This document shows positions 27,198-50,289 of a stretch of 64,000 bases of DNA, piece after piece. How positions within the stretch are numbered: position 1 is the stretch's first letter; the number at the start of each line of letters is the position of its first letter. The position numbers and the translations under genes were made by a program. Origin of the DNA: Escherichia coli (lineage in GTDB: Bacteria; Pseudomonadota; Gammaproteobacteria; Enterobacterales; Enterobacteriaceae); the NCBI RefSeq assembly GCF_024223415.1, contig NZ_CP100500.1. One strand, given 5' to 3'. Below the pieces are notes generated by a model that ran no database searches, had not been told where the DNA came from, and saw nothing but the letters and a program-made list of their open reading frames with translations.

Positions 27198-28022
27198 TTA
27201 TCGCATTATGCCCATGAAGCCATGTACGCCCATATACACACCGACTAAGCCAATCAACAGACTGGAAAAATAGGGGGCGCGTTTAGCGAGAGTGTTAAAT
27301 CCGCTCCAGCGTTTTGCGACCTGCTGAACGCTGATTGCTGCGCCAACGCCTACGGTGACAAGCGTTAACGCCAGGCCAATGCTGAAACTGACGACCAGTG
27401 TTGCGCCCAGTGTCAGGGCTTTCAACTGAATGCAAATCAACAGCACGGTAATTGCTGCCGGACAGGGGATAAGACCACCTGTTAAGCCAAATAACAAAAT
27501 TTGCCAGTTGGTGACCTCTCTACCATCAAAGCGTCGTTTAATATCATTGGCATGGGCTCGTGCATGGGCATCCTGATACTCGCCATGTTCGTGATGGTGA
27601 TGATGTCCATGGTCGTGGTGATCTTCGTGATCGTGGTGATGATGTTCATGATCATACTCGTGCATATTCTCCAGCCAGTTGCGTTCGCCGCGCCAGGTAC
27701 GCCAGAACATCCAGAACGCGGTGCCAATAATGATCACTGCGGAAATCAGCTGGAGCCACGGTTCTGCTGATTGAGCAGTAAAGCGCTTGCTGATCACCAT
27801 CCCGCCAAAGGCAATTAACCAGACCACTGCGGTATGCGAAATAGTTGCTGCCAGTCCGAGCATCACCGCCTGTTTAATGGTGCCTTTGATGGCGATGATA
27901 AACGCCGCCATCATCGTTTTTGAGTGCCCTGGTTCCAGGCCATGAAGCGCACCAAGTAAGATGGCGCTGGGGATGAAGAACCAGGCGTTTCCTTGCTGAA
28001 GAAGAGTTGTAAATTCGGTCAT
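27198..28022 (-). CDS. rcnA: Nickel/cobalt efflux pump RcnA
   Basis: 274-aa membrane protein with a His-rich loop (HEYDHEHHHHDHEDHHDHGHHHHHEHG). Confidence 0.92.
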   Translation of the reverse strand: MTEFTTLLQQGNAWFFIPSAILLGALHGLEPGHSKTMMAAFIIAIKGTIKQAVMLGLAATISHTAVVWLIAFGGMVISKRFTAQSAEPWLQLISAVIIIGTAFWMFWRTWRGERNWLENMHEYDHEHHHHDHEDHHDHGHHHHHEHGEYQDAHARAHANDIKRRFDGREVTNWQILLFGLTGGLIPCPAAITVLLICIQLKALTLGATLVVSFSIGLALTLVTVGVGAAISVQQVAKRWSGFNTLAKRAPYFSSLLIGLVGVYMGVHGFMGIMR

Positions 28023-28059
28023 GATAATAATTCTTAGTATTAATTCGGCAATCTGATTC

Positions 28060-28095
28060 TACTCCCCCCCCAGTACCTGATACTACCCCCCAGTA
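28060..28095. promoter_or_regulatory. RcnR operator pair in the rcnA-rcnR divergent region
   Basis: tactccccccccagta (28060-28075) and tactaccccccagta (28081-28095) match the known TACT-G6-N-AGTA RcnR motif on the opposite strand. Confidence 0.7.
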
Positions 28096-28143
28096 GATTA
28101 ATAGTGCTATGATTTTTCATATTCTTGTTAACCAGGTGTTGCC

Positions 28144-28416
28144 ATGTCTCATACAATCCGTGATAAACAGAAACTGAAAGCGCGTGCCAGTAAGATTCAG
28201 GGCCAGGTCGTGGCGCTCAAGAAAATGCTCGACGAGCCGCACGAATGCGCTGCAGTTTTACAACAGATTGCTGCTATCCGTGGCGCGGTAAACGGTCTGA
28301 TGCGGGAAGTGATTAAAGGTCATCTGACGGAACACATCGTTCACCAGGGGGATGAGCTAAAACGTGAAGAAGATCTGGATGTCGTTCTGAAGGTGCTGGA
28401 TTCATATATCAAATAA
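28144..28416 (+). CDS. rcnR: Ni/Co-responsive repressor RcnR (CsoR/RcnR family)
   Basis: 90-aa protein [21 protein letters not shown], in the K-12 position. Confidence 0.92.
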
Positions 28417-28510
28417 TTTATTAACGCGATTGTAAAACTGCCGTTTTTCCTCGTTTACAACGCGTGCGCTGGACATTACCATCCTCCTCTGCGATTTATC
28501 ATCGCAACCA

Positions 28511-28557
28511 AACGACTCGGGGTGCCCTTCTGCGTGAAGGCTGAGAAATACCCGTAT
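28511..28557 (+). promoter_or_regulatory. 5' half of the thiM TPP (THI-box) riboswitch aptamer, cut off by the island
   Basis: aacgactcggggtgcccttctgcgtgaaggctgagaaatacccgtat equals the 5' part of the crystallised E. coli thiM aptamer. Similarity ends abruptly at 28557. Confidence 0.88.
28544..28557 (+). repeat. attL core (direct repeat copy 1)
   Basis: agaaatacccgtat is identical to 39954-39967. Confidence 0.8.
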
Positions 28558-28642
28558 TTTCTCATTTAGTGTTTTTTGTGGTTCGGGGTTGTTCGTGGTT
28601 GTTTGTGTATGTGTTTGATATATATTGAATTATTGTGTTTTC

Positions 28643-28718
28643 TTGTTTGTTGTTGTTCGTCGTTGTTCGTAGAGCTTCAACAAAATGTGTGGTCAGTTGT
28701 GTGGTCAGTTTTTTGAGG
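28643..28718 (+). repeat. Left-arm copy of a ~75-bp repeat shared by both island arms (candidate Int arm-type sites)
   Basis: 28653-28712 is 60/60 identical to 39831-39890. It contains tandem GTGTGGTCAGTT x2 and TTGTTCGT x2, and a further GTTGTTCGT copy lies near 28594. Confidence 0.8.
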
Positions 28719-28745
28719 CTGGAGGACTGAAAAGAGGATCTGATA

Positions 28746-29969
28746 GTGGGAAAAGCACTAAACAAACTGAGCGATTCGACGTTAAAAAAATTGGCGTCTG
28801 TCCAAGCAGAAAAAGAGCGTTTTTACTCCGACGGGGGCGGGCTGGAGATTAAACACTCAAAGGGCGGCAAATTAACCTGGTATTTCCGGTACCGAACGGG
28901 AGGCCGTGAGGTTGCCGCAGAGCGGTTAAAGCTGGGGGCTTACCCTGAATTGTCGCTGAAAGCTGCAAGGGAAAAACGCGCACAGTGCCGGGCATGGCTG
29001 GCTGAGGGTAAAAACCCCCGTTATGAGTTGTGCGCCACAGTACAGGAAGCGCTAAAACCCGTTACGGTGAAGGAGGCGATTAACTACTGGCTGGATGAAT
29101 ATGCGAAGGATAACCGCAAAGACTACATAAAGCTGGTGCAACGTATGGATAAGCACATCATTTGCCATATAGGGGCAATTCCCCTTGATAAGTGTGATAC
29201 AAGGCAGTGGATCGCATGTTTTGACCGTGTACGAAAAAAAGCACCAGTAGCAGCAGGGCACGTCATGCAAACCTGCAAACAGGCGCTAAAGTTCTGCCGC
29301 AGGAGACGCTACGCGTTCAGTAATGCCCTGGACGATTTGATCGTCAGCGATGTGGGTAAGAGAGCAGAAATTCGCGAGAGGGTGCACAGCAACAGCGAAT
29401 TAAAGGAAATTTTACGCGCTATTGATGGTGATGTGTTCGCGCCTTACTACAGCGCGTTAATGCGCTTGCTGATTGTGTTCGGGTGCAGAACGGCAGAGGT
29501 CAGACTTTCAGAGATCAAAGAATGGGATCTGAAAGAAATGTTGTGGACAGTGCCAAAAGAGCATAGCAAAACGAAGGTAACGATATTCAGGCCAATCCCC
29601 GATGGCATTTTGCCGTTCATTCAGAAGCTGGTGGAGCAGAACCGGCATACAGGGTTATTACTCGGAGAACTGAAAAAAGATACCACGGTAGCGCAATATG
29701 GGCGAAATGCGCATAAGCGGCTTAACCAGGAACACTGGACGCTGCATGACTTTCGCCACACGTTTACAACGATGCTGAACGATTTAGGTGTCGATCCGCA
29801 TATCGTGGAGCACATCACAGCGCATCAGATGCCCGGTCAGCAAAAAACCTATAACCATTCACGCTATTTACAGGCGAAGCGAGACGCTCTGAATCTGTGG
29901 GTTGAGCGCCTCGATGTGCTGGCTGGAAATCATGAAAATATTGTCATATTAAGGGCTGAAAATGAATAA
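28746..29969 (+). CDS. int: Tyrosine recombinase, P4-type integrase
   Basis: GTG start with a GAGGA RBS 7 nt upstream. The N-terminus resembles an arm-binding domain (GGGLEIKHSKGGKLTWYFRYR). The C-terminus has HDFRHTF...HQ...Y catalytic motifs. Confidence 0.9.
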   Translation: MGKALNKLSDSTLKKLASVQAEKERFYSDGGGLEIKHSKGGKLTWYFRYRTGGREVAAERLKLGAYPELSLKAAREKRAQCRAWLAEGKNPRYELCATVQEALKPVTVKEAINYWLDEYAKDNRKDYIKLVQRMDKHIICHIGAIPLDKCDTRQWIACFDRVRKKAPVAAGHVMQTCKQALKFCRRRRYAFSNALDDLIVSDVGKRAEIRERVHSNSELKEILRAIDGDVFAPYYSALMRLLIVFGCRTAEVRLSEIKEWDLKEMLWTVPKEHSKTKVTIFRPIPDGILPFIQKLVEQNRHTGLLLGELKKDTTVAQYGRNAHKRLNQEHWTLHDFRHTFTTMLNDLGVDPHIVEHITAHQMPGQQKTYNHSRYLQAKRDALNLWVERLDVLAGNHENIVILRAENE

Positions 29970-30747
29970 TCTGGGCCGTGTATATCATACGCTGCCAATG
30001 GCAGCTAAAAAAATGGGATGTACTGTAGAGGATATTCTACATTTTGGTGCAACTAACCGACTTGAAATATGTGCGTATATTGATGATATTGAACAGAGAA
30101 AAGATTATTGCACTTTTAATGTGTTTTTTGATAATGAAGATAGCGAGAATAGTTTTTCTAAAACTATAAATAAATATAATTCCATATTTACTGACATGTA
30201 TGAAATATCATTGTTTAATTATAATGATGAGTTTTGTGTTGATGATGAGCGTATGGTTATTGAAGGTTTGTATGCTAATCATATGAAAGGCTTTTTTGCA
30301 ATACCATCTGAATTTCTTGTCGAAGTTGAATTGTCAAGTGCCTGTGAAATCATAAATCTATCGCCTCGTTATTTATATACACCGAAAGGTTATGGTGATT
30401 ATATTCGGTTGGATAGTATAGAAGGTCTTTCTATTCCAGAAAACAGGCTCGTGATATTCGATAGTGAGATATCGGGTTTTAATTATCAAAAGAAACCTAA
30501 ATATGCCGGAGGTGAAAGAGAATCACCTAAAACCAGAGCTAAAAAAGCCGAGATAATACCTGCTCTCATAAAACTGATCCCTGAGATGCAAGATGTGGAT
30601 TTGGAGGATACACCCGTATCCAAAATTGCAGAAATGATAGAGGTTATTGCTGCACAAAGAGGGGTTGAGTTACCTAGCACTCACAGGCAGACATGGCAGA
30701 AATATTTAGGGCGTGATGCTGGTGACGTTCCAAAACGTCAAAAGTGA
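29962..30747 (+). CDS. Hypothetical 261-aa protein, strongly AT-rich cargo-like gene, with possible N- and C-terminal HTH-like segments
   Basis: The ATG overlaps the int stop (ATGAATAA). I recognise no family. Composition is visibly more AT-rich than its neighbours. Confidence 0.6.
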   Translation: MNNLGRVYHTLPMAAKKMGCTVEDILHFGATNRLEICAYIDDIEQRKDYCTFNVFFDNEDSENSFSKTINKYNSIFTDMYEISLFNYNDEFCVDDERMVIEGLYANHMKGFFAIPSEFLVEVELSSACEIINLSPRYLYTPKGYGDYIRLDSIEGLSIPENRLVIFDSEISGFNYQKKPKYAGGERESPKTRAKKAEIIPALIKLIPEMQDVDLEDTPVSKIAEMIEVIAAQRGVELPSTHRQTWQKYLGRDAGDVPKRQK

Positions 30748-30774
30748 TATCACGTACAGATAGTGTGATATCAC
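30744..30774. promoter_or_regulatory. Pair of perfect 10-bp palindromes GTGATATCAC upstream of alpA (candidate operators)
   Basis: Copies at 30744-30753 and 30765-30774, offset by 21 bp (two helical turns). Confidence 0.6.
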
Positions 30775-30803
30775 ACAAACGGCATTTTACCACCGCCTAG
30801 AAT

Positions 30804-30837
30804 CGTCCTCGTTCGGCAACGTTCGAGGACGTTTTTT
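30804..30837 (+). terminator. Hairpin plus T-run directly abutting the alpA start; its 3' arm contains the alpA Shine-Dalgarno
   Basis: cgtcctcg (30804-30811) pairs with cgaggacg (30824-30831) and is followed by TTTTTT, then the ATG at 30838. Confidence 0.6.
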
Positions 30838-31062
30838 ATGAATCAAAATACACAATTTCAATCACTATCAGATCGCGTAATCCGTGAGGATGAATGCCGT
30901 AAGTTAACAGGAGTGTGCCGCACTACACGCTACGAACTGGAGAAAAAAGGGAGCTTTCCGTCTCGCCGTAATCTTGGTGGGCGTTCTGTAGGTTGGCTGC
31001 TGTCCGAGGTTATGGAATGGGTTAAAAGCCGGGATCGCATTAATTCAGGCAAGGCAGCGTAA
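30838..31062 (+). CDS. alpA: AlpA-family (prophage CP4-57 regulatory / excisionase-like) DNA-binding protein
   Basis: 74 aa with the motif RVIREDECRKLTGVCRTTRYELEKKGSFPSRRNLGGRSVGWLLSEVMEWV, typical of the AlpA/Vis family. Confidence 0.85.
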   Translation: MNQNTQFQSLSDRVIREDECRKLTGVCRTTRYELEKKGSFPSRRNLGGRSVGWLLSEVMEWVKSRDRINSGKAA

Positions 31063-31080
31063 AGGGGAGTATATGACACA

Positions 31081-31109
31081 TAAAACAAAGGCGACCGGGG
31101 GCGGTCGCC
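31081..31109 (-). terminator. Terminator for the leftward two-gene repressor operon (convergent with alpA)
   Basis: The ggcgaccg/cggtcgcc 8-bp stem is followed on the minus strand by TTTGTTTTA. Confidence 0.55.
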
Positions 31110-31200
31110 AATGGGAAAACACTAAACATAAGCCCGGCCATCATAGCGATTTGCTGGCTGGTGGGCAATGTGTCCAGTGTGGTGGCTTGCTGGTGGATTG

Positions 31201-31428
31201 TCAGCCAGGCGGTCGGTTTTTGCCGGATTTAAGCCGCCGTGGGTATTTATCGACAAAATCTTCAAGGGCAAATTTTTCTGGTGGCACTAAGCGCGGCGCT
31301 GGTGGTGGTATTTTTGTTCTGGTTAGTTCTTCCTCAAGTCTGGCGCAGGCTTCTGACTGCCTTTGCCGGATGATTTCATCATCTTGCGTTTGCGTGTCTT
31401 GTATTGGTGATAGTGTGTTGTTGGTCAT
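31201..31428 (-). CDS. Hypothetical 75-aa protein, second gene of the leftward operon
   Basis: ORF downstream of the RHH gene on the same strand, with a weak RBS. It competes with a 336-codon plus-strand ORF that I judge spurious. Confidence 0.45.
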   Translation of the reverse strand: MTNNTLSPIQDTQTQDDEIIRQRQSEACARLEEELTRTKIPPPAPRLVPPEKFALEDFVDKYPRRLKSGKNRPPG

Positions 31429-31485
31429 GATACTGCCCTGTAAAGCAATGCGCCGTAGTACCTCACACCACGGCGCTGATAGTGA

Positions 31486-31683
31486 TTATTCTGATTCTTT
31501 GGCCTTGCGGCGCTGTTCATATTTTAATTTGCGTCCACAGGCATCTAAGACCCATGCGGAAAAATTAGCACTAGGATTAGTTAATTTTTCTTGTTCAACG
31601 CTGGCATCAATCCCATCTATAAGCTCATGTGGGAATCGAATATTTTTCTTTGCTGATTTGTTGTTTGTGTTACCACTAGACAT
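31486..31683 (-). CDS. Small ribbon-helix-helix (Arc/CopG-like) DNA-binding protein, candidate island repressor
   Basis: KKNIRFPHELIDGIDASVEQEK...FSAWVLDACGRKL fits a beta-strand plus two-helix RHH pattern. It has a good RBS (GAGGTG 7 nt upstream) and is divergent from the operator cluster. Confidence 0.6.
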   Translation of the reverse strand: MSSGNTNNKSAKKNIRFPHELIDGIDASVEQEKLTNPSANFSAWVLDACGRKLKYEQRRKAKESE

Positions 31684-31710
31684 TGATGCACCTCACTTAA
31701 ATGGACTTTA

Positions 31711-31790
31711 TGGGCGCACACAATACAGCAAAAAAAGTGAGAAGTTAAGTATTGACATGTGCGCACACATGATTCTAATCTGTGCGCACA
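31711..31790 (+). promoter_or_regulatory. Divergent control region: three TGTGCGCACA palindromic operators overlapping a rightward sigma70-like promoter
   Basis: Perfect palindromes at 31758-31767 and 31781-31790, plus a 9/10 copy at 31711-31720. TTGACA (31752-31757), a 16-bp spacer and TCTAAT (31774-31779) form the promoter. Confidence 0.65.
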
Positions 31791-31882
31791 GTTTGGGTTG
31801 CATTGCTCAAATTAAGCAACGCCCCGCAGTGCTCGCAACACATGCAGGGCGTCTAACCAAACCGTTAATAGGAGTAACGATT

Positions 31883-32083
31883 ATGGCTGGAACACAGCAT
31901 ACCCCACGCCTTGCGCACACACAAACCGCCTTTGTGTGGCGTTTTCTGGCACTGAGTGCCGGAGAATCTCAAATTATCCACGTAACCGCCTGGACGGAAC
32001 GCGAAGCGCGTAACCGTTGCCCGTCCGGTTGTGTCGCTGTATTCGCCGCCCGTATCCGTCAGGGGGAAACCTATGCACAATAA
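31883..32083 (+). CDS. Icd-like (P4 host cell division inhibitor-like) small protein
   Basis: 66 aa, MAGTQHTPRLAHTQTAFVWRFLALSAGESQIIHVTAWTEREARNRCPSGCVAVFAARIRQ. It has an AGGAG RBS. It resembles the family annotated Icd-like in P4-type islands (from memory). Confidence 0.6.
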   Translation: MAGTQHTPRLAHTQTAFVWRFLALSAGESQIIHVTAWTEREARNRCPSGCVAVFAARIRQGETYAQ

Positions 32084-32303
32084 AACAACACCGGACGCAG
32101 CAGAAGAAGCAATGCAAATACTGATACGTGCGCTCGTTGATGTTACCCACATGGTGGAGATTATGGAGAGAAAATCACAGTCGGAGCACGACAAAAGAAA
32201 ACTTAAAACAATAAAAATAATTGCCAAAAACTCGCTGATAAAAGTTACAGACATCCTTAATGAGGACATTAAAAGAATCAGGGAGAAAGTGTGTGATGCA
32301 TAA
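32073..32303 (+). CDS. Hypothetical 76-aa helical protein
   Basis: The start ATG overlaps the icd-like stop (ATGCACAATAA) and has an AGGGGGA RBS. Confidence 0.5.
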   Translation: MHNKTTPDAAEEAMQILIRALVDVTHMVEIMERKSQSEHDKRKLKTIKIIAKNSLIKVTDILNEDIKRIREKVCDA

Positions 32304-32523
32304 AATACCTTTTGATGTTCTTATTCATTCTGAAAACGCATTAATCCGTGCAAAGGAAATGGACGCATTACTACTTAAGTTAATTGATGTGCCGGAAAGT
32401 GGCGATGAATCTGATTCAATAATGTTTTCTGCCGTGCGTACGCTATTAACGCATGTTATTAATGAATTAAATACAGTGATGGCAATTCACGAGAATAATA
32501 AAGCGCAGCACACCGGAGAATAA
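32296..32523 (+). CDS. Hypothetical 75-aa protein
   Basis: The start overlaps the previous stop (ATGCATAA) and has a GGGAGA RBS. Confidence 0.5.
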   Translation: MHKIPFDVLIHSENALIRAKEMDALLLKLIDVPESGDESDSIMFSAVRTLLTHVINELNTVMAIHENNKAQHTGE

Positions 32524-32528
32524 AAACC

Positions 32529-32828
32529 ATGAAAAATAAAAATTCTGGCGTTAATGCCAGCGGCCCCGCTCGGCCTGAATTTATGAACGGCGATATTTAC
32601 CGCGACCAGTACGGCGGCACGGTAACGATTAAAGGCGTGGAGGAACGGCGCATCACTTACCGCCGTGAAGGCTACGAATATGATTGCGTGATGCCTGTTT
32701 ATCAGTTCCGGCGTGATTTTTCTCTGGTACAGGCAGCGCCCCGCAGTAAACCAACCAGCAGGGAGAAAGCACGCGCCAATATTCAGGAAATAAAAAAGAT
32801 GCTTAACGTATTCAGGGGTAAAAAATGA
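32529..32828 (+). CDS. Hypothetical 99-aa protein (DUF4222-like, common in enterobacterial prophage-like elements)
   Basis: The motif GDIYRDQYGGTVTIKGVEERRITYR supports the family assignment, which is from memory only. Confidence 0.5.
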   Translation: MKNKNSGVNASGPARPEFMNGDIYRDQYGGTVTIKGVEERRITYRREGYEYDCVMPVYQFRRDFSLVQAAPRSKPTSREKARANIQEIKKMLNVFRGKK

Positions 32829-34573
32829 AACTGGCACCGAACGTAAAAAAACAGCCGCGTGGAATAAAACACAAAGACACAGAGGTGATTATCTTTGCGG
32901 GTAGTGATGCCTGGGCGCACGCGAAACAGTGGCAGGAACAGGACGGCCCCGCATCCGGCGATGATGTGCCGCCTGTGTGGCTCGGGCCAAATCAGCTTGC
33001 TGAACTGGATGCACTGAAAATTGTACCGGAGGGAAAAAAACGCGTAAGGCTGTACAGGGCCGGAGAACTGGATTTGGTGGAGACCAAAAAGATTGGTCAG
33101 AAGCTGGCGGCGGCAGATATTCAGGATGCGAATTTTTACTCTGAAGGAATGCACGGCCAGAAGGTGCAGAACTGGCGGCGCTATCTGAGTGCTGAGCGTG
33201 AAAATATTGCCGCAGGGCTTACCATGCCGGAACAGAAAAAAGCACAACTTTCACAGATGGCAGACAGTGAACGGGCACAGCTTCTTTCTTCCCGCTTTGA
33301 TGGTGTCTGCGTCCATGCAGAAAGTGAAATCGTTCACGTATGGCGCGGCGGGGTATGGTGTCCGGTCAGCACAATGGAACTTAGCCGCGAAATGGTGGCG
33401 ATCTATTCAGAGCACAGGGCCACTTTCAGCAAGCGCGTAATCAATAACGCCGTGGAAGCGTTAAAAGTTATTGCCGAACCAATGGGCGAGCCGTCCGGCG
33501 ATTTGCTGCCGTTCGCCAATGGTGCGCTTGACCTGAAAACGGGGGAATTTTCCCCGCACACGCCGGAGAACTGGATCACCACGCACAACGGCATTGAGTA
33601 CACGCCACCAGCACCAGGGGAGAATATCTGCGACAACGCGCCAAACTTTCATAAATGGCTTGAGCACGCAGCCGGAAAAGACCCGCGCAAGATGATGCGT
33701 ATATGTGCCGCGCTGTACATGATTATGGCGAACCGGTACGACTGGCAGATGTTTATTGAGGCCACCGGAGACGGCGGGAGCGGCAAAAGTACATTCACAC
33801 ACATAGCCAGCCTTCTGGCAGGGAAACAGAACACGGTAAGCGCTGAGATGACATCGCTTGATGATGCTGGTGGGCGTGCGCAGGTTGTCGGGAGTCGGCT
33901 TATTGTCCTGGCAGACCAGCCGAAATATACAGGCGAAGGAACGGGCATCAAGAAAATCACGGGCGGAGACCCCGTGGAAATAAACCCGAAATATGAGAAG
34001 CGTTTTACGGCGGTAATCAGGGCGGTGGTGCTGGCTACCAACAATAACCCGATGATATTCACCGAACGGGCCGGAGGTGTGTCACGTCGTCGCGTAATTT
34101 TCCGTTTCGACAATATCGTCAGTGAGGCTGAAAAAGACAGGGAGCTACCGGAAAAGATTGCGGCTGAAATCCCTGTCATTATCCGCCGCTTGCTGGCGAA
34201 CTTTGCCGACCCTGAAAAGGCACGGGCTTTACTCATTGAACAGCGAGACGGTGATGAAGCTCTGGCAATAAAGCAACAGACGGATCCGGTTATTGAGTTT
34301 TGCCAGTTTCTGAATTTTCTGGAGGAAGCGCGCGGCCTGATGATGGGCGGCGGCGGTGACTCTTCCAGGTACACGACCAGAAACAGCCTTTACCGCGTCT
34401 ATCTGGCGTTTATGGCGTATGCAGGCAGGAGCAAACCGCTAAACGTAAATGACTTTGGCAAGGCTATGAAGCCAGCGGCGAAAGTTTACGGACATGAATA
34501 TATAACGCGCAGGATTAAAGGGTTTACGCAAACCAACGTGACAACAACAGACGACTGCGACGCGTTTTTATAA
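32825..34573 (+). CDS. Replication initiator/helicase, phage-plasmid primase P4-family C-terminal type (SF3 helicase); primase activity of the N-terminus is uncertain
   Basis: NGALDLKTGEF motif, Walker A GDGGSGKST and Walker B LIVLAD. ATGA overlap with the upstream gene. Iterons lie immediately downstream. Confidence 0.85.
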   Translation: MKLAPNVKKQPRGIKHKDTEVIIFAGSDAWAHAKQWQEQDGPASGDDVPPVWLGPNQLAELDALKIVPEGKKRVRLYRAGELDLVETKKIGQKLAAADIQDANFYSEGMHGQKVQNWRRYLSAERENIAAGLTMPEQKKAQLSQMADSERAQLLSSRFDGVCVHAESEIVHVWRGGVWCPVSTMELSREMVAIYSEHRATFSKRVINNAVEALKVIAEPMGEPSGDLLPFANGALDLKTGEFSPHTPENWITTHNGIEYTPPAPGENICDNAPNFHKWLEHAAGKDPRKMMRICAALYMIMANRYDWQMFIEATGDGGSGKSTFTHIASLLAGKQNTVSAEMTSLDDAGGRAQVVGSRLIVLADQPKYTGEGTGIKKITGGDPVEINPKYEKRFTAVIRAVVLATNNNPMIFTERAGGVSRRRVIFRFDNIVSEAEKDRELPEKIAAEIPVIIRRLLANFADPEKARALLIEQRDGDEALAIKQQTDPVIEFCQFLNFLEEARGLMMGGGGDSSRYTTRNSLYRVYLAFMAYAGRSKPLNVNDFGKAMKPAAKVYGHEYITRRIKGFTQTNVTTTDDCDAFL

Positions 34574-34586
34574 TTTTTTGTAATTG

Positions 34587-34814
34587 CTGTCTACCCTGTC
34601 TACCTGAGTAAAGAAAAATACATTTAATTCAGTGCATTAAGTTAGGTAGATAGCCTTTTTTTACTGTCTACCCACTATCTACCCTCTCTACCTGATTTTA
34701 CCAGAATCAGACAGGGAGGTAGACACGGGGTAGATAGTGGATAAAAGCACTCTACCCCGCTGAAAGCCGCGCCATTACTGGCATGAGGGCCACTAAGGTA
34801 GGTAAGGTAGACAA
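34587..34814. other. Candidate island replication origin: iteron cluster (C)TGTCTACC / GGTAGA(C/T)A
   Basis: Direct copies at 34587, 34596, 34664, 34675, 34684 and 34751. Inverted copies at 34645, 34718, 34729 and 34806. The cluster lies in the 288-bp non-coding gap after the replicase gene. Confidence 0.75.
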
Positions 34815-34861
34815 GGGGAGGCACAACTCAAAACTTTTTAAACGAGGGGGTAAAAATAAAA

Positions 34862-35119
34862 ATGCACACATCAGAAAAATTTAACAATCAGAAGAAATCA
34901 CATAACCGCGCCATTGACCTTACAGAGCACTGGCTGAGGGTGGCGATAAAAATCATCGACCGCAACGCGGGAGAAGGATACGCGAAAGCACATCCCGAAC
35001 TGATAAGCGCATTCATGACCACAGCGGCGGCAAACTTTGCCACGTTGACAGAACGGGAGATTGCCGAAGCGGAACAGGTGACAACCATCAATGTTAAAAC
35101 CGGAGAGCAGACAGCATGA
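34862..35119 (+). CDS. Hypothetical 85-aa protein
   Basis: ORF with a GAGGGGG RBS. Its stop overlaps the ssb start. Confidence 0.5.
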   Translation: MHTSEKFNNQKKSHNRAIDLTEHWLRVAIKIIDRNAGEGYAKAHPELISAFMTTAAANFATLTEREIAEAEQVTTINVKTGEQTA

Positions 35120-35526
35120 CAGCACAGATAGCGGCTTACGGGCGGCTGGTGGACGACCCGCAGACAAAACAGACCAGCAAGGGAACACCGATGACGCTGG
35201 CACGTATGGCGGTATCGCTGCCATGCAGCCAGGCACAGGATGGACAGGCGACGTTATGGCTATCGGTCATCGCATTTGGTAAGCAGGCCGACTTCCTGGC
35301 TAAACATCAAAAAGGCGACGTTGCCAGCGTATCCGGCACGATGCAGGTCAGCCAGTGGACCGGACAGAACGGGGAAACGCGGCAGGGTTATCAGGTTATT
35401 GCAGACAGCGTAATCAGTGCCCGTGCGGCACGTCCTGGCGGGAACAGACGCAAAACCACAGGCACACAGGGTAATCAGCCACCAGCGGGAGGCGATGACC
35501 CTTACGGTGATGATATTCCGTTCTGA
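35116..35526 (+). CDS. ssb: Single-stranded DNA-binding protein
   Basis: OB-fold-like N-terminus, a Gly/Pro/Gln-rich linker and the canonical acidic tip DDIPF at the C-terminus. Confidence 0.85.
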   Translation: MTAQIAAYGRLVDDPQTKQTSKGTPMTLARMAVSLPCSQAQDGQATLWLSVIAFGKQADFLAKHQKGDVASVSGTMQVSQWTGQNGETRQGYQVIADSVISARAARPGGNRRKTTGTQGNQPPAGGDDPYGDDIPF

Positions 35527-35536
35527 GGGGGTGACG

Positions 35537-35809
35537 ATGGTACATGACCGGATAGCGGAGGAACTGGAGGCGAAAGGATTTTACCGGAGGGCGGCCGCGC
35601 GATGGGGTGAAGTTATGAGGCTGGTGAGCACTGACAAGGAGCGCGAACAGGTGGCAATGCGACGGCTGGAATGTTCACAGAAGGCACAGAGGCCACCGGA
35701 GCCGCCGGATGATTTAGGCGCTCTGAAAAGGTCAGTTAATCGCACTGAAAAACAAATGGGGATAGCTGGTATTGGCAAAGCAATATGGCGCAACTACCCG
35801 CAGAAGTGA
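35537..35809 (+). CDS. PerC-family-like transcriptional regulator (90 aa)
   Basis: MVHDRIAEELEAKGFYRRAAARWGEVM resembles the PerC/Pch N-terminal signature (from memory). The start was chosen at the ATG with a GGGGGTGA RBS, not the longer ORF-track form. Confidence 0.55.
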   Translation: MVHDRIAEELEAKGFYRRAAARWGEVMRLVSTDKEREQVAMRRLECSQKAQRPPEPPDDLGALKRSVNRTEKQMGIAGIGKAIWRNYPQK

Positions 35810-35815
35810 GCACAC

Positions 35816-35839
35816 AGCCGGAGCAATCCGGCTTTTTTG
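35816..35839 (+). terminator. Rho-independent terminator ending the replication/regulation operon
   Basis: agccgga-gcaa-tccggct followed by TTTTTG. Confidence 0.75.
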
Positions 35840-35844
35840 CACCC

Positions 35845-35889
35845 AAAAAAAGCCCGATAAGTACAGGAGGCATCTTATCGGGCTTTTGC
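35845..35889. terminator. Second, bidirectional-looking hairpin terminator
   Basis: AAAAAAA-gcccgataag...cttatcgggc-TTTTG. Confidence 0.6.
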
Positions 35890-35966
35890 ATATGAGGTTT
35901 TTTTTGGTGCACTGACACACATGATCGGGATAATCATTTCATAATTTGCAACGTAACTCAATATTG

Positions 35967-36016
35967 TTGCGCAAAATGCAATCATGATTATAATCAGGAC
36001 TGGATGAACATCCAGT
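35967..36016 (+). promoter_or_regulatory. Candidate promoter of the capsid operon, followed by a perfect hairpin/palindrome
   Basis: TTGCGC (35967-35972), a 16-bp spacer and a perfect TATAAT (35989-35994) inside the palindrome TGATTATAATCA. This is followed by ACTGGATG-AA-CATCCAGT (35999-36016). Confidence 0.5.
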
Positions 36017-36050
36017 TATGATTTTTTAAGTCAAAGAGGAATTTCTGACT

Positions 36051-36257
36051 ATGGCAGAAGAGAAAAAAGGCGGGGTGACGGTCTACATAAGCCCCGACAT
36101 CGTGGAGGCGCTCAAGGAACGCCACCAGCAGAATGTAAAAGCAGGCATTGCGGCAGGACTTGATCCGCTGGCGATGGTTGAGCCGTCAACAGGCTGGCAG
36201 GTGCGTACCTATTTACGTGCGGCGCTGGGTATCAATCAGGTTCACGGAGGTGAATAA
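36051..36257 (+). CDS. Hypothetical 68-aa protein, first gene of the capsid module
   Basis: AGAGGA RBS. Its stop overlaps the capsid gene start (TAATG). Confidence 0.55.
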   Translation: MAEEKKGGVTVYISPDIVEALKERHQQNVKAGIAAGLDPLAMVEPSTGWQVRTYLRAALGINQVHGGE

Positions 36258-37312
36258 TGACAGGCAAAGCAACGGCACTTACAACTAACCAGCTTTTCGC
36301 GTACCTGAATCGCGGGGATATTTCGGAATTAAAATTCAGTCCGCTGTTTACCACGCTGTTTTTCCCGAACGTGGCGACCTTCAACACCCAAAACATCATG
36401 CTGGACACCCTGGACATTGAAGAGGTTACGATGTCAGCGTTCTGTTCGCCTATGGTGGGTAGTCAGGTCCAGCGCGATAAAGGGTACGAAACCAGCACAA
36501 TCAAACCTGGCTACATGAAGCCAAAGCACGAAATCGATCCAACAAAGACCATCATGCGCATGGCTGGAGAAGATCCGGCACAGCTTAACGACCCAACCTA
36601 TCGCCGTATGCGCCTGATTACTGGCAACATGCGCCGCCAGGTAAACGCCATTAAAGCGCGTGTTGAATGGCTGGCGGTGAATGCGGTAACGACCGGAAAA
36701 AACATCATTGAGGGCGAAGGCATAGAACGCTATGAAATCGACTGGAAAATACCGGAAAACTGCATCATACAGCAGGCCAGTGGTAAAAAATGGTCCCAGC
36801 AGGATAAAGACATGCACGACCCAATCTATGACATCGAGCTTTATGCTGATCAGGCAGGTTGCCCCGCCAACGTCATGATTATGGGCGGTGAGGTATGGCG
36901 CACATTACGCAGCTTTAAAAAATTCCGTGAACTGTACGATCTTTCCCGTGGATCAGAATCCGCCGCCGAGCTGGCCTGTAAAAACCTGGGCGAAGTGGTG
37001 AGCTTTAAAGGCTATCTTGGTGATCTGGCCCTTATCGTCTATTCCGGCAAATACACTGACAGCGACGGCACCGAAAAATATTTCCTTGAGCCTGATTTGC
37101 TGGTCCTGGGTAACACCAATAATAAAGGGCTGGTGGCATATGGTGCGATTATGGATCAGGAAGCGGTAAGAACGGGCGCAACGCAAAACATGTACTACCC
37201 GAAAAACTGGATTGAGGACGGCGATCCGGCGATTGAGTACGTGCAGACGCACAGCGCACCGCAGCCGGTACCGGCAGATATTCGCAAATTTGTTACCGTC
37301 AAAATTGCTTAA
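36257..37312 (+). CDS. Major capsid protein, lambda gpE family
   Basis: Collinear similarity to lambda gpE as recalled: PGYMKPKHEIDP vs PGYVKPKHEVNP, DPTYRRMRL vs DPAYRRRRI, and YPKNWIEDGDPAIEYVQTHSAP vs YPKNWVTTGDPAREFTMIQSAP. Length is 351 aa against 341 aa for gpE. Confidence 0.88.
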   Translation: MTGKATALTTNQLFAYLNRGDISELKFSPLFTTLFFPNVATFNTQNIMLDTLDIEEVTMSAFCSPMVGSQVQRDKGYETSTIKPGYMKPKHEIDPTKTIMRMAGEDPAQLNDPTYRRMRLITGNMRRQVNAIKARVEWLAVNAVTTGKNIIEGEGIERYEIDWKIPENCIIQQASGKKWSQQDKDMHDPIYDIELYADQAGCPANVMIMGGEVWRTLRSFKKFRELYDLSRGSESAAELACKNLGEVVSFKGYLGDLALIVYSGKYTDSDGTEKYFLEPDLLVLGNTNNKGLVAYGAIMDQEAVRTGATQNMYYPKNWIEDGDPAIEYVQTHSAPQPVPADIRKFVTVKIA

Positions 37313-37323
37313 CGGGGGATTCT

Positions 37324-37659
37324 ATGGACGCTCCATATATTGAGTTATTTGCAGGCAGCCAGCAGGTATCCACGACGCTGGTACATTTTGCCGCTGATGC
37401 TGGCGTTATTCAGGAATTTACCCCGCTGATGCTGGCAGACAATGGCGAGTTTAAGGCGTGGGATGGTCAGGAATCTGGCAAAGCTGTTTATCTGACTTCG
37501 CACCCCGTGGACACGTCAAAGCAGAAATCAGCACAGTGTTACAAAACGGGGATATTCAATATTGCCGCCGTTAACTGGCCTGACAGCGTCGACACCGATG
37601 CGAAAAAATGCGCCGCCTTTGCGGGTTCCGGCGTATCCGTTCAGCCGCTGGCCCGATAA
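37324..37659 (+). CDS. Head decoration protein, lambda gpD-like
   Basis: 111 aa. FTPLMLADNGEFKAWDG vs lambda MTPLMLDTSSRKLVAWDG, and YKTGIFNIAAVNWP...KKCAAFAGSGVSV vs YKSGTFRYEDVLWP...KKRTAFAGTAISI. Confidence 0.8.
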   Translation: MDAPYIELFAGSQQVSTTLVHFAADAGVIQEFTPLMLADNGEFKAWDGQESGKAVYLTSHPVDTSKQKSAQCYKTGIFNIAAVNWPDSVDTDAKKCAAFAGSGVSVQPLAR

Positions 37660-37671
37660 GCAGGGGGAACG

Positions 37672-38085
37672 ATGGCAACGAATGAAAGTATCATGACGCT
37701 ACCGCTGGCGAGTAAATTTAAAGCCGAAGCGCGGGCAATGGCTGACAGAGGTTTATCAACCTACGAGGCCATACACCGACTAAACAAACTGGAAGAACAG
37801 GACAAGCCGCGCGCTGATGCGATTATGGCGCTTCATGAATCTGACGACTACCAGCCGCTGTTACGTGCAATGGCTAACGTGCCTTGTATCGATGTTGGTA
37901 CGGCTAAAAGCATCCTTAGCATGACCATAGAGCAGGAACGCCCGAAGGTTGCACCAGAGCTTACTTCAGCCTTTGAAAACTTTATGGACATGCACAGCCC
38001 GAAAGCCGTATCAGCTGGCATGGCATACGATGGCAGAACCCCGTGCGATGACGGCGACATCGACCGCATACTGAAAACCATCTGA
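37672..38085 (+). CDS. Hypothetical 137-aa protein in the capsid module (function unknown; a scaffold or size-determination role is only a guess)
   Basis: ORF with a GGGGGA RBS, last gene before the terminator and cos site. Confidence 0.55.
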   Translation: MATNESIMTLPLASKFKAEARAMADRGLSTYEAIHRLNKLEEQDKPRADAIMALHESDDYQPLLRAMANVPCIDVGTAKSILSMTIEQERPKVAPELTSAFENFMDMHSPKAVSAGMAYDGRTPCDDGDIDRILKTI

Positions 38086-38090
38086 GACAA

Positions 38091-38114
38091 GGCCGGAGAA
38101 ATCCGGCTTTTTTT
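38091..38114 (+). terminator. Rho-independent terminator after the capsid module
   Basis: ggccgga-gaaa-tccggc followed by TTTTTTT. Confidence 0.75.
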
Positions 38115-38116
38115 GC

Positions 38117-38190
38117 GGGTCCTTTCCGGCATGTGGACCCGTTACGGGGCGTCGACCTCGCACGTTTTCGCTATTTATGACGTTTTTCCG
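38117..38190 (+). other. cos site 1 (plus orientation): lambda-like cosQ-cosN and the beginning of cosB
   Basis: gggtcctttccgg...cccgttacGGGCGTCGACCTcgcacgttttcgctatttatga matches recalled lambda gggtcctttccgg...ggttacgGGGCGGCGACCTcgcgggttttcgctatttatga. The 12-nt overhang equivalent is at 38147-38158 (11/12 identical to lambda). Confidence 0.8.
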
Positions 38191-38247
38191 TGAAGGTGAC
38201 ACCACCACCACTTGATTAATATTTAACCATGTAGTTAAGGTAACATT

Positions 38248-38682
38248 ATGATTGATAAAGCTTGTTTTGTAAGTCAGCAGGAAATAGCTGAACATTTCAA
38301 TGTTAACAGAACCACTATTCGCGCATGGACCAAACAGGGGATGCCGTATCTTAATGCGGATCGCGGAAAGTCTGGCGGTTATCACATCGGGCATACATTG
38401 TTTTGGTATTCAGGTAAAAGCCATCTTCAGACCATCGGATATCACGTAGAAACCAGTGCGCTGGAAAAAATTATGTTTGCCAGGCTGCTTTCATCTGAGC
38501 GTGACGAGTACTCCAGTGAAGAAACAGAACATCGATTTGATGAAGGTTTGCAGATTTACGGCTATTCACCGGAAGATGTGAGCAAGGCACGAAATAAAAT
38601 GGCTGGCTTTCTGGCTGGGTGGCGTCATGCCGTAAGCGTTCGCCGTGCCAGCATGGAGCAATCAGCCGATACAGAACAGTAA
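38248..38682 (+). CDS. Small terminase subunit, lambda Nu1-like (winged HTH N-terminus)
   Basis: VSQQEIAEHFNVNRTTIRAWTKQGMPYLNADRGKSGGYHIGHTLFWY parallels Nu1 KKQLADIFGASIRTIQNWQEQGMPVLRGGGKGNEVLYDSAAVIKWY. It lies just downstream of cos site 1, as Nu1 does in lambda. Confidence 0.75.
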   Translation: MIDKACFVSQQEIAEHFNVNRTTIRAWTKQGMPYLNADRGKSGGYHIGHTLFWYSGKSHLQTIGYHVETSALEKIMFARLLSSERDEYSSEETEHRFDEGLQIYGYSPEDVSKARNKMAGFLAGWRHAVSVRRASMEQSADTEQ

Positions 38683-38720
38683 AGCCGATAACTTGTTAAT
38701 CACGCGCAGCAATGCGTGTG

Positions 38721-38847
38721 ATTTTTGCACACTTCCGGTTAACGGGTACGATGTCCGGTTTGTTTGTACATTTTTTGCACATGTCCGGTTCGCAGAAAGC
38801 ATGTTTTTATATTTTTCAGATAGTTAACTTGCAGAGAAACCGGACAT
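38721..38847 (-). promoter_or_regulatory. cosB-like array of small-terminase binding-site candidates (ATGTCCGGTT repeats) belonging to cos site 2
   Basis: TTCCGGTT at 38733-38740. ATGTCCGGTT at 38751-38760 and 38781-38790. An inverted AACCGGACAT at 38838-38847. An AT-rich spacer at 38800-38830. Two copies carry the extended motif TTTTTGCACA. Confidence 0.6.
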
Positions 38848-38850
38848 GGA

Positions 38851-38930
38851 TCCCGAAAAATTTTCATAAATAGTGAAAACGCGCGGGTTCGACGCCCCGT
38901 AACGGGCCATAATTCCAGAAGGACCCGACG
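38851..38930 (-). other. cos site 2 (minus orientation): second lambda-like cosQ-cosN, convergent with cos site 1
   Basis: The minus strand reads gggtccttctgg...cccgttacGGGCGTCGAACCcgcgcgttttcactatttatgaaaattttt. The overhang equivalent is at 38886-38897 (9/12 to lambda). An 18-nt core (38889-38906) is identical to 38138-38155. Confidence 0.75.
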
Positions 38931-38960
38931 ACACCAGACTATCAGAGCGATGGGGGCACA

Positions 38961-39242
38961 ATGACAGAAGCCGAACTACTGGGATTAATCCGCCGCGTTA
39001 CCGGAATCAGCCAGCAGCATGACGAACAGGCCACGCAGCCGGACAGCGTGACCGCCGAAAATTATGTGCGTGTTGTTGCGGAGGTGATGCGCCGTGACGG
39101 TATTGAGCTTAACGGCGTGGATATGCGCGACATACGGATCCGCGTTCTGGAAATGCTGGCATACCGTCGCCGCGTGCAGACGTACAGGGAAAAAGCAAAA
39201 ATAACGTACCACTGGAAGAAGCCGGAACGACTGCGTACGTAA
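38961..39242 (+). CDS. Hypothetical 93-aa protein
   Basis: ORF with a GGGGG RBS. It ends in the palindrome CGTACGTA-A-TACGTACG (39233-39249). Confidence 0.45.
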   Translation: MTEAELLGLIRRVTGISQQHDEQATQPDSVTAENYVRVVAEVMRRDGIELNGVDMRDIRIRVLEMLAYRRRVQTYREKAKITYHWKKPERLRT

Positions 39243-39261
39243 TACGTACGGACATCGAGAT

Positions 39262-39506
39262 AACGCAAAATTGCGCTGGCTACATCCCTCACATCTGAGG
39301 ACTGATAACAAGCTGCCTGAAAGACAGTCACAAACTACGAAATTTTCGCAGTTTAATTAATGGTCAGCTTAATCGCTAACCCGCTGATATTTTCGGAAAC
39401 ATCAATTTGAGGAAGTCGGCGCGGTAACTCGCTGAACTTAAAGCAAAGCGCAAAATTGCGCTGATTACTGGTTGGAATTGTTCCAGAGTGCAAATTTGCA
39501 CTCTGG
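39262..39506. repeat. Set of related inverted repeats (GCGCAA-AA-TTGCGC type) plus a 24-bp perfect palindrome
   Basis: aacgcaaaattgcgct at 39262-39277, agcgcaaaattgcgct at 39447-39462, and ccagagtgcaaatttgcactctgg at 39483-39506. Confidence 0.7.
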
Positions 39507-39667
39507 CCTAACCCGTTGATTATTTCGAAAACCTGCAATGCAGGAAATCGGGGAAGTAAGCCTAAGCTATTGATTGTTTCGAAAACCACCATTGGGGGAT
39601 GTCGGGAAAGTAAGACTAACCCATTGATTCTTCCACAATCCTCAATGTGAGGAGGCCGGACATCGTG
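39376..39667. repeat. Four degenerate ~54-bp repeat units (three in exact tandem phase) in the right arm of the island
   Basis: Units start at 39376, 39508, 39562 and 39616. Consensus is CTAACCCnTTGATTnTTTCGAAAAC plus a short hairpin plus GTCGG..AGTAAG. Confidence 0.75.
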
Positions 39668-39820
39668 ACAGAGCGTGACAACCAGGTAACTAATCTCGCT
39701 GGTGGGCGTGATGTCGATATGGTGATCCCCATAACGGGTTATCCGTGATCATCCACCAGCTTCATGGCAGATAGCCGGAAAATGATAACGGTTAAGCAAA
39801 ACTGCCAGCAAATTTCCCTT

Positions 39821-39894
39821 TTGTTTGTTATTGTTCGTCGTTGTTCGTAGAGCTTCAACAAAATGTGTGGTCAGTTGTGTGGTCAGTTTTGAGG
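39821..39894 (+). repeat. Right-arm copy of the ~75-bp repeat shared by both island arms
   Basis: 39831-39890 is identical to 28653-28712. Confidence 0.8.
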
Positions 39895-39953
39895 TTTTTA
39901 ATTCTTATGTGCTGAAAAACTTATTAATTATCAACTGATAACAAAAATTAGTA

Positions 39954-39967
39954 AGAAATACCCGTAT
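39954..39967 (+). repeat. attR core (direct repeat copy 2)
   Basis: agaaatacccgtat is identical to 28544-28557. Confidence 0.8.
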
Positions 39968-40048
39968 CACCTGATCTGGATAATGCCAGCGTAGGGAAGT
40001 CACGGACCACCAGGTCATTGCTTCTTCACGTTATGGCAGGAGCAAACT
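39954..40048 (+). promoter_or_regulatory. 3' half of the thiM TPP riboswitch aptamer plus its expression platform
   Basis: agaaatacccgtatcacctgatctggataatgccagcgtagggaagtcacgg...ggcaggagcaaact continues the thiM aptamer exactly where 28557 stops and runs to the thiM ATG. Confidence 0.88.
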
Positions 40049-41634: not shown

Positions 41635-41698
41635 GCACCGTACTATAGCTGCTTTGGTTATTGTCAGCCTTTGGCACTGACATTCAGGGATGAAACCA

Positions 41699-48089: not shown

Positions 48090-50289
<2,200 letters not shown>

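Follow-up and report, generated by a model that had tools for sequence, protein, structure and literature searches.

A candidate YlcI-type repressor and its probable operators at the early promoter of an EcCICFT073-like phage satellite in Escherichia coli

We describe a putative genetic switch in a 64,000-nucleotide stretch of Escherichia coli DNA (contig NZ_CP100500.1, assembly GCF_024223415.1; hereafter the window), located in an island that resembles the Gram-negative phage-inducible chromosomal island (PICI) EcCICFT073. Three copies of a short repeat lie between a leftward gene for a 65-amino-acid protein of the YlcI/YnfO family and a rightward early operon that opens with an icd-like gene. 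Comparison with related islands suggests that YlcI, a likely ribbon-helix-helix (RHH) protein, would occlude the early promoter from two of these sites and regulate its own gene from the third, a model to which we give a probability of roughly 0.7. Judged from sequence comparison, it is very probable that the repeats are protein-binding operators, and there is good reason to expect that YlcI is their cognate protein. The core of the original prediction for this DNA has strong comparative support: a small RHH-type repressor gene that points away from the early operon and whose operators overlie the early promoter.

Results

Three repeats at two predicted back-to-back promoters

Direct reading and a repeat search located two perfect copies of the repeat, O1 (TGTGCGCACA, 31758-31767) and O2 (TGTGCGCACA, 31781-31790, within a 12-bp palindrome at 31780-31791), and one 9/10 copy, O3 (TGGGCGCACA, 31711-31720). 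Their placement between the 65-amino-acid gene and the rightward operon had been predicted and is borne out. The repeat search groups all three as one family, with start-to-start distances of 47 bp from O3 to O1 and 23 bp from O1 to O2. Exact TGTGCGCACA occurs twice in the window against 0.18 expected, a count reached by 1 of 100 shuffles. When one mismatch is allowed, there are three matches against 3.97 expected and no window-wide enrichment, so the signal is one of clustering rather than abundance: all three matches fall inside a single 80-bp intergenic stretch, for which we estimate a chance probability of about 3 x (80/64000)^2 = 5e-6. Allowing two mismatches revealed no further convincing operator site in the island. 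A candidate fourth operator within icd (31910-31921, 8/10 match) is not conserved in relatives that share the operator and was treated as chance. We also rejected the idea that the repeats are replication iterons, as the iterons of the island are a different motif and lie downstream of the primase gene.

The rightward promoter has its -35 element, TTGACA, at 31752-31757 (plus strand), and O1 follows it immediately, filling the spacer at about -30 to -21. This element had been paired with TCTAAT across 16 bp; TTGACA stands and the letters TCTAAT are present (31774-31779), but this register is probably not the right one. Across 36 distinct related promoters, positions 2 and 6 of the TCTAAT register are variable, whereas the hexamer TAATCT (31776-31781, plus strand), with an 18-bp spacer, retains its first T in 34 of 36, its A at position 2 in 36 of 36, and its final T in 36 of 36. 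TCTAAT lacks an A at position 2, which explains why a consensus scan did not call this promoter. The true -10 is therefore most likely TAATCT, whose last T is the first base of O2; the predicted start would then lie near 31788, with O2 spanning about -7 to +3. The expectation that the perfect copies cover the spacer and the start region of the rightward promoter is met by this arrangement.

The leftward promoter appears to be its mirror image. The predicted -10 of ylcI, TATTGT (31725-31720, minus strand), ends in a T that is the first base of O3, and the predicted start near 31713 would place O3 at about -7 to +3, where we propose that it serves autoregulation. About two thirds of related loci have TAnnnT at this place, and most of the others are off by 1 nt. 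The candidate -35, TTAACT (31743-31748, minus strand, 17-bp spacer), is poorly conserved in relatives and is assigned with low confidence. The ylcI-type gene itself (31486-31683, minus strand, ATG start) is preceded by the Shine-Dalgarno sequence GAGGT (31690-31694) 6 nt before its start codon, in agreement with the good ribosome-binding site noted earlier.

Conserved geometry and locus-specific sites

Related regions were drawn from two independent collections, 45 loci from a scan of one genome per species and 53 from IMG/VR. The species-scan loci come from Serratia, Rahnella, Klebsiella, Pectobacterium, Xenorhabdus, Proteus, Morganella, Gilliamella, Orbus and others, and the 69 distinct regions span Enterobacterales and Orbales. 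Nearly all share one layout: a -35 of the form TTGAC[AGC], followed at once by an approximately 11-bp site, TG(T/G)-N5-CAC, and, 12 bp beyond it, by a second copy, the first T of which also ends a TAnnnT hexamer. In most loci a third copy, beside a TAnnnT on the opposite strand, lies 47 bp upstream of O1. A locus-specific site occupies the position of O1 in 69 of 69 regions; further copies of a region's own O1 sequence number at least one in 69 of 69 and at least two in 58 of 69, with preferred offsets from O1 of +23 (60 of 69) and -47/-48 (about 47 of 69). On average, each region contains 3.43 further sites compared with 0.046 in shuffles (palindromic sites counted on both strands).

The sequence of the site varies by locus; examples include TGTGCGCACAC, TGTTTAAACAC, TGTATRTGCAC, TGTRCGGACA, TGGGTNCACAC, TGTGGCCGCAC, TGTCTACACAC and TGCCCCAACAC, among others. 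Within a locus the cores of O1 and O2 differ at 0.85 of 7 bases, compared with 3.26 of 7 between loci. Concerted change of all copies in a locus would be expected if they are read by a trans-acting factor whose recognition is specific to that locus. Relatives from Rahnella, Klebsiella and Erwinia have a perfect O3, so a weakened third site is not part of a conserved design. One IMG/VR locus (L071, contig 2874945390_000001) carries a variant of the window-type switch from which the 23 bp between O1 and O2 have been deleted, with loss of the -10, as expected from recombination between the direct repeats O1 and O2.

Family and predicted fold of YlcI

The 65-amino-acid protein scores 59 bits against NCBIfam NF041551 (YlcI_YnfO_N; curated cut-off 30) and 28.3 bits against the Pfam family DUF3950 (PF13132; curated cut-off 25), and also belongs to PHROG 949. 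All three are families without an assigned function, and PF13132 is matched by all 37 of 37 aligned homologues. The alignment has a variable N-terminal arm (residues 2-14), the 12-14 residues that precede a conserved strand, I15-R16-F17-P18; from this strand on conservation is high, and two helices follow. An AlphaFold2 monomer model (mean predicted local distance difference test score 74) shows an extended N terminus and helices at 19-35 and 41-64; the strand would be expected only in a dimer.

Arc of phage P22, in a sequence checked against the PDB, gave a weak match in hhalign: YlcI residues 11-26 (AKKNIRFPHELIDGID) align to Arc 8-23 (PQFNLRWPREVLDLVR) with E = 0.013 and a probability of 3%. 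In this register, K12, N14 and R16 of YlcI correspond to Q9, N11 and R13 of Arc, which are its base-contacting strand residues. Neither single-sequence nor profile searches matched a solved structure by sequence, and distant family members tried as a bridge to RHH Pfam families returned matches to DUF3950 only. A trait of RHH systems is nevertheless present in the DNA, namely repeated short operator subsites that overlap a promoter, with the second site inverted in some loci (L012, L025, L047 and L049). This evidence is weak but convergent, and we consider an Arc-like RHH (MetJ/Arc) fold likely. The earlier assignment of the protein as an RHH repressor has comparative support, with no significant sequence homology found to Arc.

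Members of the family also occur in phages. Lambda (J02459, about 48112-48306, minus strand; our locus L052) encodes, at a distance of about 200 bp from cos, an unannotated 64-amino-acid YlcI/YnfO protein (DUF3950, E = 1.9e-20). YlcI homologues are found in 153 phage records, including 434, HK629 and Shiga toxin (Stx) phages, with one conserved arm, RRTTTRN; lambda, 434 and the Stx phages all have theirs beside cos. In the Stx phage YYZ-2008 the homologue is divergent from HNH-terS-terL genes. No operator-like triple was found upstream of the lambda or Stx-phage homologues. Two distant representatives (P0154 and P0155) have DUF3950 domains fused to the N terminus of a terminase small subunit or to a resolvase-type helix-turn-helix (HTH) domain, fusions that fit a DNA-binding role near cos/pac in phages.

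Covariation of the operators with the YlcI arm

Over 65 non-redundant loci, operator distance correlates with the distance between YlcI arms (r = 0.57). With the rest of the protein controlled for, the partial correlation stands at 0.55 (0 of 5000 permutations); with the arm controlled for, the rest of the protein shows none (-0.02). When the control is instead the leader DNA, whose linkage to the operators is as tight as that of the arm codons, a correlation of 0.53 is left (0 of 5000 permutations). Within the arm, variation with the operator core is seen at positions -1, -3 and -4 (N14, K12 and A11), and also at -9 and -10; R16 is invariant. The covariation at -1, -3 and -4 lends indirect support to the view that YlcI would dimerize and bind DNA specifically through its paired strands.

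The relationship extends out of sample. For IMG/VR loci whose arm is identical to one in the genome set, the predicted O1 is off by 0.63 of 11 positions, compared with 3.76 for random pairings (n = 19). A natural swap is seen in E. coli S21EC, where AlpA and primase are 97% and 92% identical to those of the window and both the arm and the operators are different. Conversely, loci from Rahnella, Klebsiella and Erwinia combine the window's KKN arm with TGTGCGCACA but lack its types of AlpA, integrase and primase.

Exchangeable cassettes and the putative switch of EcCICFT073

Among E. coli genomes, related modules are present in about a third of those that are complete. The flanks of the switch are 85-95% identical and the segment between them is replaced. 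On one side the conserved flank consists of the 3' end of ylcI and a G+C-rich hairpin (31450-31476, minus strand) that lies between ylcI and the next leftward gene, orf75; on the other side it is the leader hairpin of the early operon. The replacement cassettes encode 59-amino-acid YlcI types, 100-amino-acid YlcI types or, in O157:H7-type islands, an unannotated 57-amino-acid Arc-like protein, and they have repeated sites of their own: TGTAAGACAC, TGTGATTCA, TGTATATCAC, GTGAAATACAC and GGTAATTACC. These patterns suggest that arm and operators form an exchangeable cassette that may give related islands different "immunities". In the O157:H7 islands between roxA and phoQ (L050, 1543-1716, minus strand; L109), the Arc-like gene occupies the position of ylcI and GGTAATTACC occurs twice around TTGACA; RefSeq has a long "Icd-like" pseudogene on the opposite strand instead.

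EcCICFT073, which we found between roxA and phoQ in CFT073, has the same gene order as the window island and is 91.6% identical to it at the nucleotide level over 6.76 kb, from the DUF4222 gene to the right end. Protein identity is high for SSB (98%), capsid (95%), the RppA-like protein (95%) and primase (90%), and lower for integrase (67%), AlpA (61%), Icd (51%) and YlcI (34%). Its switch reads TTGACG-TGGGCCACACC-TAAAGCATATAG-TGGGCCACACC, with a near-consensus -10, TATAGT, and its YlcI gene is C_RS30120. The two islands are therefore alike in having a YlcI gene and twin operators in the same place, and they differ in integration site (roxA-phoQ, compared with the thiM leader here) and in operator sequence (TGGGCCACACC compared with TGTGCGCACA). 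On this reading, they would be heteroimmune relatives.

The second leftward gene, orf75 (31201-31428, minus strand), is found in E. coli only and has no Pfam, NCBIfam or PHROG family. It is weakly similar to the 57-amino-acid second leftward protein of the CFT073 and O157 islands (L111, 8242-8415; pairwise E = 2e-4), with which it shares the motif FALExFxxxY. A toxin-antitoxin module with an RHH antitoxin is unlikely, given that orf75 matches no toxin family and is absent after ylcI in other genera.

The early operon and its structured leader

The icd-like gene (31883-32083, plus strand; NF033153, E = 5.1e-18; phrog_1743 and phrog_6196) is the first of the rightward early operon, with its start at 31883 and not at 31884. 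The remainder of the presumed operon (32073-35809, plus strand) comprises small open reading frames, a DUF4222 gene, the primase gene, origin iterons, orf85, ssb and a perC-like gene. Gene spacing is tight, and on the plus strand a good terminator-like site first appears at 35816-35833, just past perC; since no convincing plus-strand terminator precedes it, the proposed extent of the operon, from the icd-like gene through perC, is plausible. No strong plus-strand terminator was found between alpA and the rightward promoter. A 336-codon open frame (31073-32083, plus strand) crosses orf75 and ylcI in antisense orientation and continues into the icd-like gene, and RefSeq entries of relatives contain N-terminally extended "Icd-like" pseudogenes that resemble this frame and mask the small leftward genes.

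The operon has a conserved, structured 5' leader. Directly after O2 there is a variable hairpin, followed by a conserved one (31819-31852, plus strand) with an outer helix and an inner GTG/CAC helix, and then by a conserved single-stranded TCTAACCAAAC. Minimum free energy folding and RNAalifold on 35 leaders support 10 pairs in this hairpin, most with compensatory changes. A second, 5-bp hairpin, CGTTA-ATAGGAG-TAACG (31863-31879, plus strand), holds the icd-like Shine-Dalgarno sequence in its loop; four of its five pairs have changed on both sides and 96% of alignment cells are paired. For the whole leader (31790-31882, 35 sequences), 12 of 15 pairs are compensatory and 93% of cells are paired, with 0 of 500 shuffles reaching this level. 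No Rfam family matched the leader, at E<=1 over 28000-42000 or E<=10 over 31740-32120. Antisense-RNA immunity of the C4/CI/isrK type in the leader or icd region was rejected, having no Rfam match even at E<=10. The leader might act in translational control or serve as an RNA target.

Island anatomy and insertion site

From the left, the island encodes an integrase (28746-29969) and AlpA (30838-31062), then the leftward orf75 and ylcI, and then the rightward early operon. The primase (32825-34573, plus strand) has Pfam D5_N/DUF5906 domains, and directly after its gene lies the iteron-rich presumed origin (34581-34818), a dense array of (C/T)TGTCTACC in both orientations that includes a 50-nt imperfect inverted repeat. 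This array gave spurious Rfam microRNA matches. The right part of the island contains ssb, the perC-like gene, a lambda-E-type capsid gene, a D-type decoration protein gene and a gene for a 144-amino-acid Nu1-like protein, and Pfam and PHROG annotation detects no lysis or tail genes. With int, alpA, pri-rep with an iteron origin, rpp-type packaging redirection, a length of about 11 kb and direct repeats, the island has the features of an EcCICFT073-type Gram-negative PICI.

The ends of the island are marked by the 13-bp repeat GAAATACCCGTAT (28545-28557 and 39955-39967). The insertion lies inside the thiamine pyrophosphate (TPP) riboswitch aptamer of thiM: the 5' half of the THI element follows rcnR (28520-28557), and its 3' half (39955-40014; Rfam 36.4 bits, below the gathering score of 54.3) is 11.4 kb away, ahead of thiM (ATG at 40049). 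TPP control of thiMD has probably been abolished or changed. Inside both ends there is also a perfect 61-bp direct repeat (28653-28713 and 39831-39891), which may represent integrase arm-type sites or the remnant of a tandem arrangement.

Discussion

We propose that YlcI, acting as an RHH protein, recognizes an approximately 11-bp TGT-N5-CAC site, here TGTGCGCACA(C), at three positions arranged with mirror symmetry around two back-to-back promoters. Bound to O1 and O2, it would exclude RNA polymerase from the early promoter (TTGACA-18-TAATCT), keeping the icd-like/primase/ssb/perC operon, and hence island replication, silent; bound to O3, it would limit its own synthesis. Specificity would derive mainly from the N-terminal arm and the first strand residues, with A11, K12 and N14 variable and R16 invariant. 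Derepression might follow either of two routes. A helper-phage anti-repressor could inactivate YlcI, as in Staphylococcus aureus pathogenicity islands (SaPIs), or transcription from the helper-activated alpA promoter could run on across the leftward genes and the switch, comparable to phage P4, in which the upstream late promoter P_LL reads through the immunity region. DNA binding, repression, autoregulation and a role in maintenance are all attributed to YlcI here from comparison of sequences. They do not carry equal weight: that YlcI is a maintenance repressor whose loss induces the island has, in our judgment, an even chance at best.

Several observations weigh against this model. The -10 hexamer TAATCT is weak. 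Overexpressed AlpA alone induces excision and replication of EcCICFT073 (PMC6092414), which means that repression by YlcI can be bypassed and that YlcI may not be the master control. With just 30-70 bp between the arm codons and the operators, some of the arm-operator covariation could reflect a co-inherited recombination block; the control for leader DNA and the way all copies change in concert argue against this without eliminating it. Finally, the mapping of arm to operator is not one-to-one. The eight-residue arm NNKSATKG is paired with one operator in L076 and with another in L107, indicating that residues 3-6 also matter, and the arms EKKN and AKKN, one residue apart, pair with different operators.

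The sites might instead belong to another protein, such as AlpA, the Icd-like protein, the primase/Rep or a host factor, with the YlcI gene merely adjacent. AlpA is an experimentally shown regulator of EcCICFT073 (PMC6092414), and PHROG families with Icd-like proteins are labelled "transcriptional repressor", albeit by annotation only. Yet operators differ between islands with near-identical AlpA (97%) and primase (92%), as between L051 and the window, and stay the same in loci where AlpA, integrase and primase are missing or of unrelated type. The Rep iterons have another motif and another location, a host factor cannot explain locus-specific sites, and the YlcI arm is the only tested variable with which operator distance retains a correlation, all of which makes ownership by another protein improbable. 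The notion that the palindromes are chance and the 65-amino-acid frame no gene could draw on the one-mismatch count (3 versus 3.97 expected) and on the fact that RefSeq leaves such genes unannotated in some related islands. It is effectively refuted by the comparative data: exact copies are in excess (2 versus 0.18), all hits fall within 80 bp, the architecture recurs in 69 regions from two bacterial orders, and YlcI has residues that are invariant across genera and passes two curated hidden Markov model cut-offs.

A subtler alternative accepts that YlcI binds the sites and questions what binding achieves. YlcI could be a transient or feedback regulator, Cro-like or Arc-like, or could autoregulate only ylcI-orf75 rather than maintain the island. 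RHH proteins such as Arc and antitoxins do act as feedback regulators or autoregulators, in E. coli islands another small gene lies behind ylcI, and AlpA overexpression suffices to induce EcCICFT073. On the other hand, two of the three sites, the best conserved ones, are on the rightward early promoter and not on that of ylcI; the gene after ylcI lacks conservation beyond E. coli and has no match among toxin families; and ylcI points away from the early operon, the orientation that genes for maintenance repressors have. We regard this alternative as unlikely, though the least so of the three, and retain occlusion of the early promoter by YlcI as the preferred model.

As a class, RHH repressor-operator modules are well known; what is new is the context, a satellite in which no repressor had been identified. 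The original comparison with lambda OR is only loosely apt. Both systems have three related sites between divergent promoters, a leftward repressor gene and a rightward early operon, and in both the operators and repressor specificity are exchangeable as an "immunity" cassette with conserved flanks. However, the lambda repressor is an HTH protein, whereas YlcI is a likely RHH protein of 65 amino acids and a single domain, without a C-terminal domain for cleavage or oligomerization that would couple it to SOS. The first rightward gene in lambda is cro, whereas here it encodes an Icd-like protein (NF033153) with no match to a Pfam DNA-binding domain, and no Cro-like second regulator could be identified. 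Lambda also has a contiguous array of graded affinity, compared with spacer and start-region sites here and an O3 that is perfect in several relatives.

Closer analogues are P22 immI and the RHH autoregulators of plasmids and antitoxin systems. In immI, the RHH repressors Mnt and Arc control Pant and Pmnt. As proposed for the window, a very small RHH repressor gene is divergent from an operon and an operator lies over a promoter in a back-to-back pair, and the strand motif N-x-R-(W/F)-P-x-E aligns in register between YlcI and Arc. The differences are that immI has one 21-bp operator, two regulators and an antirepressor operon, whereas the island has three separate sites of about 11 bp at 23- and 47-bp spacing, one regulator and a satellite replication module.

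Among satellites, the Stl (Rpr) repressors of SaPIs and Gram-positive PICIs are likewise encoded at the int side, divergent from the excision and replication operon (PMC6092414). They are larger HTH proteins for which derepression by helper proteins has been demonstrated, in contrast to the published Gram-negative model, which invokes the activator AlpA. The immunity regions of P4 (P_LE/P_LL, CI RNA) and P1 (immI, c4 RNA-icd-ant) share an icd-like first gene, small open reading frames, an alpha-type primase, an upstream alpA/vis homologue and a structured conserved leader (PMC10111431 and general knowledge), but their immunity depends on antisense or processing-derived RNA, whereas the island has a candidate protein repressor and no C4/isrK match at E<=10. 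Fillol-Salom et al. (2018) describe AlpA as an activator and call it unclear whether Gram-negative PICIs possess a global repressor (PMC6092414), and a 2023 paper on helper-embedded PICIs terms the alpA-primase zone the "Bro zone" and reports C4/isrK-type immunity RNAs in some islands (PMC10111431). In the accessible literature, with most subscription journals outside the search, reports on EcCICFT073 mention neither a YlcI/RHH gene nor the repeats, and full-text searches for YlcI, YnfO and DUF3950 returned passing mentions only, with nothing on function or on a Gram-negative PICI repressor. The proposal that the switch adds a control layer beyond the AlpA-only scheme of Gram-negative PICIs is supported by comparative evidence, and the literature covered here does not describe such a layer for them.

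A bolder scenario would link these islands to their helpers. Lambda, which itself encodes a YlcI/YnfO protein, is a known helper of EcCICFT073. We speculate, and consider it a long shot, that YlcI/YnfO RHH proteins together with the O157 Arc-like proteins are the missing master repressors of EcCICFT073-type PICIs, that arm-operator cassettes define immunity groups among satellites resident in one host, and that repression is sensed or lifted by a YlcI paralogue of the helper through inactive heterodimers, or by alpA read-through.

The findings give the YlcI/YnfO (DUF3950) family, hitherto a y-gene and DUF family, a concrete and testable function, and they pin the same module in a tractable model island, EcCICFT073, to C_RS30120 and two TGGGCCACACC sites. 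They also predict a simple rule of specificity leading from N-terminal arm to operator core. Should YlcI prove to be the maintenance repressor, the pathway by which a very common class of enterobacterial satellites is induced would have to be redrawn. Heteroimmune cassettes of this kind would also explain the coexistence of up to six related islands per genome.

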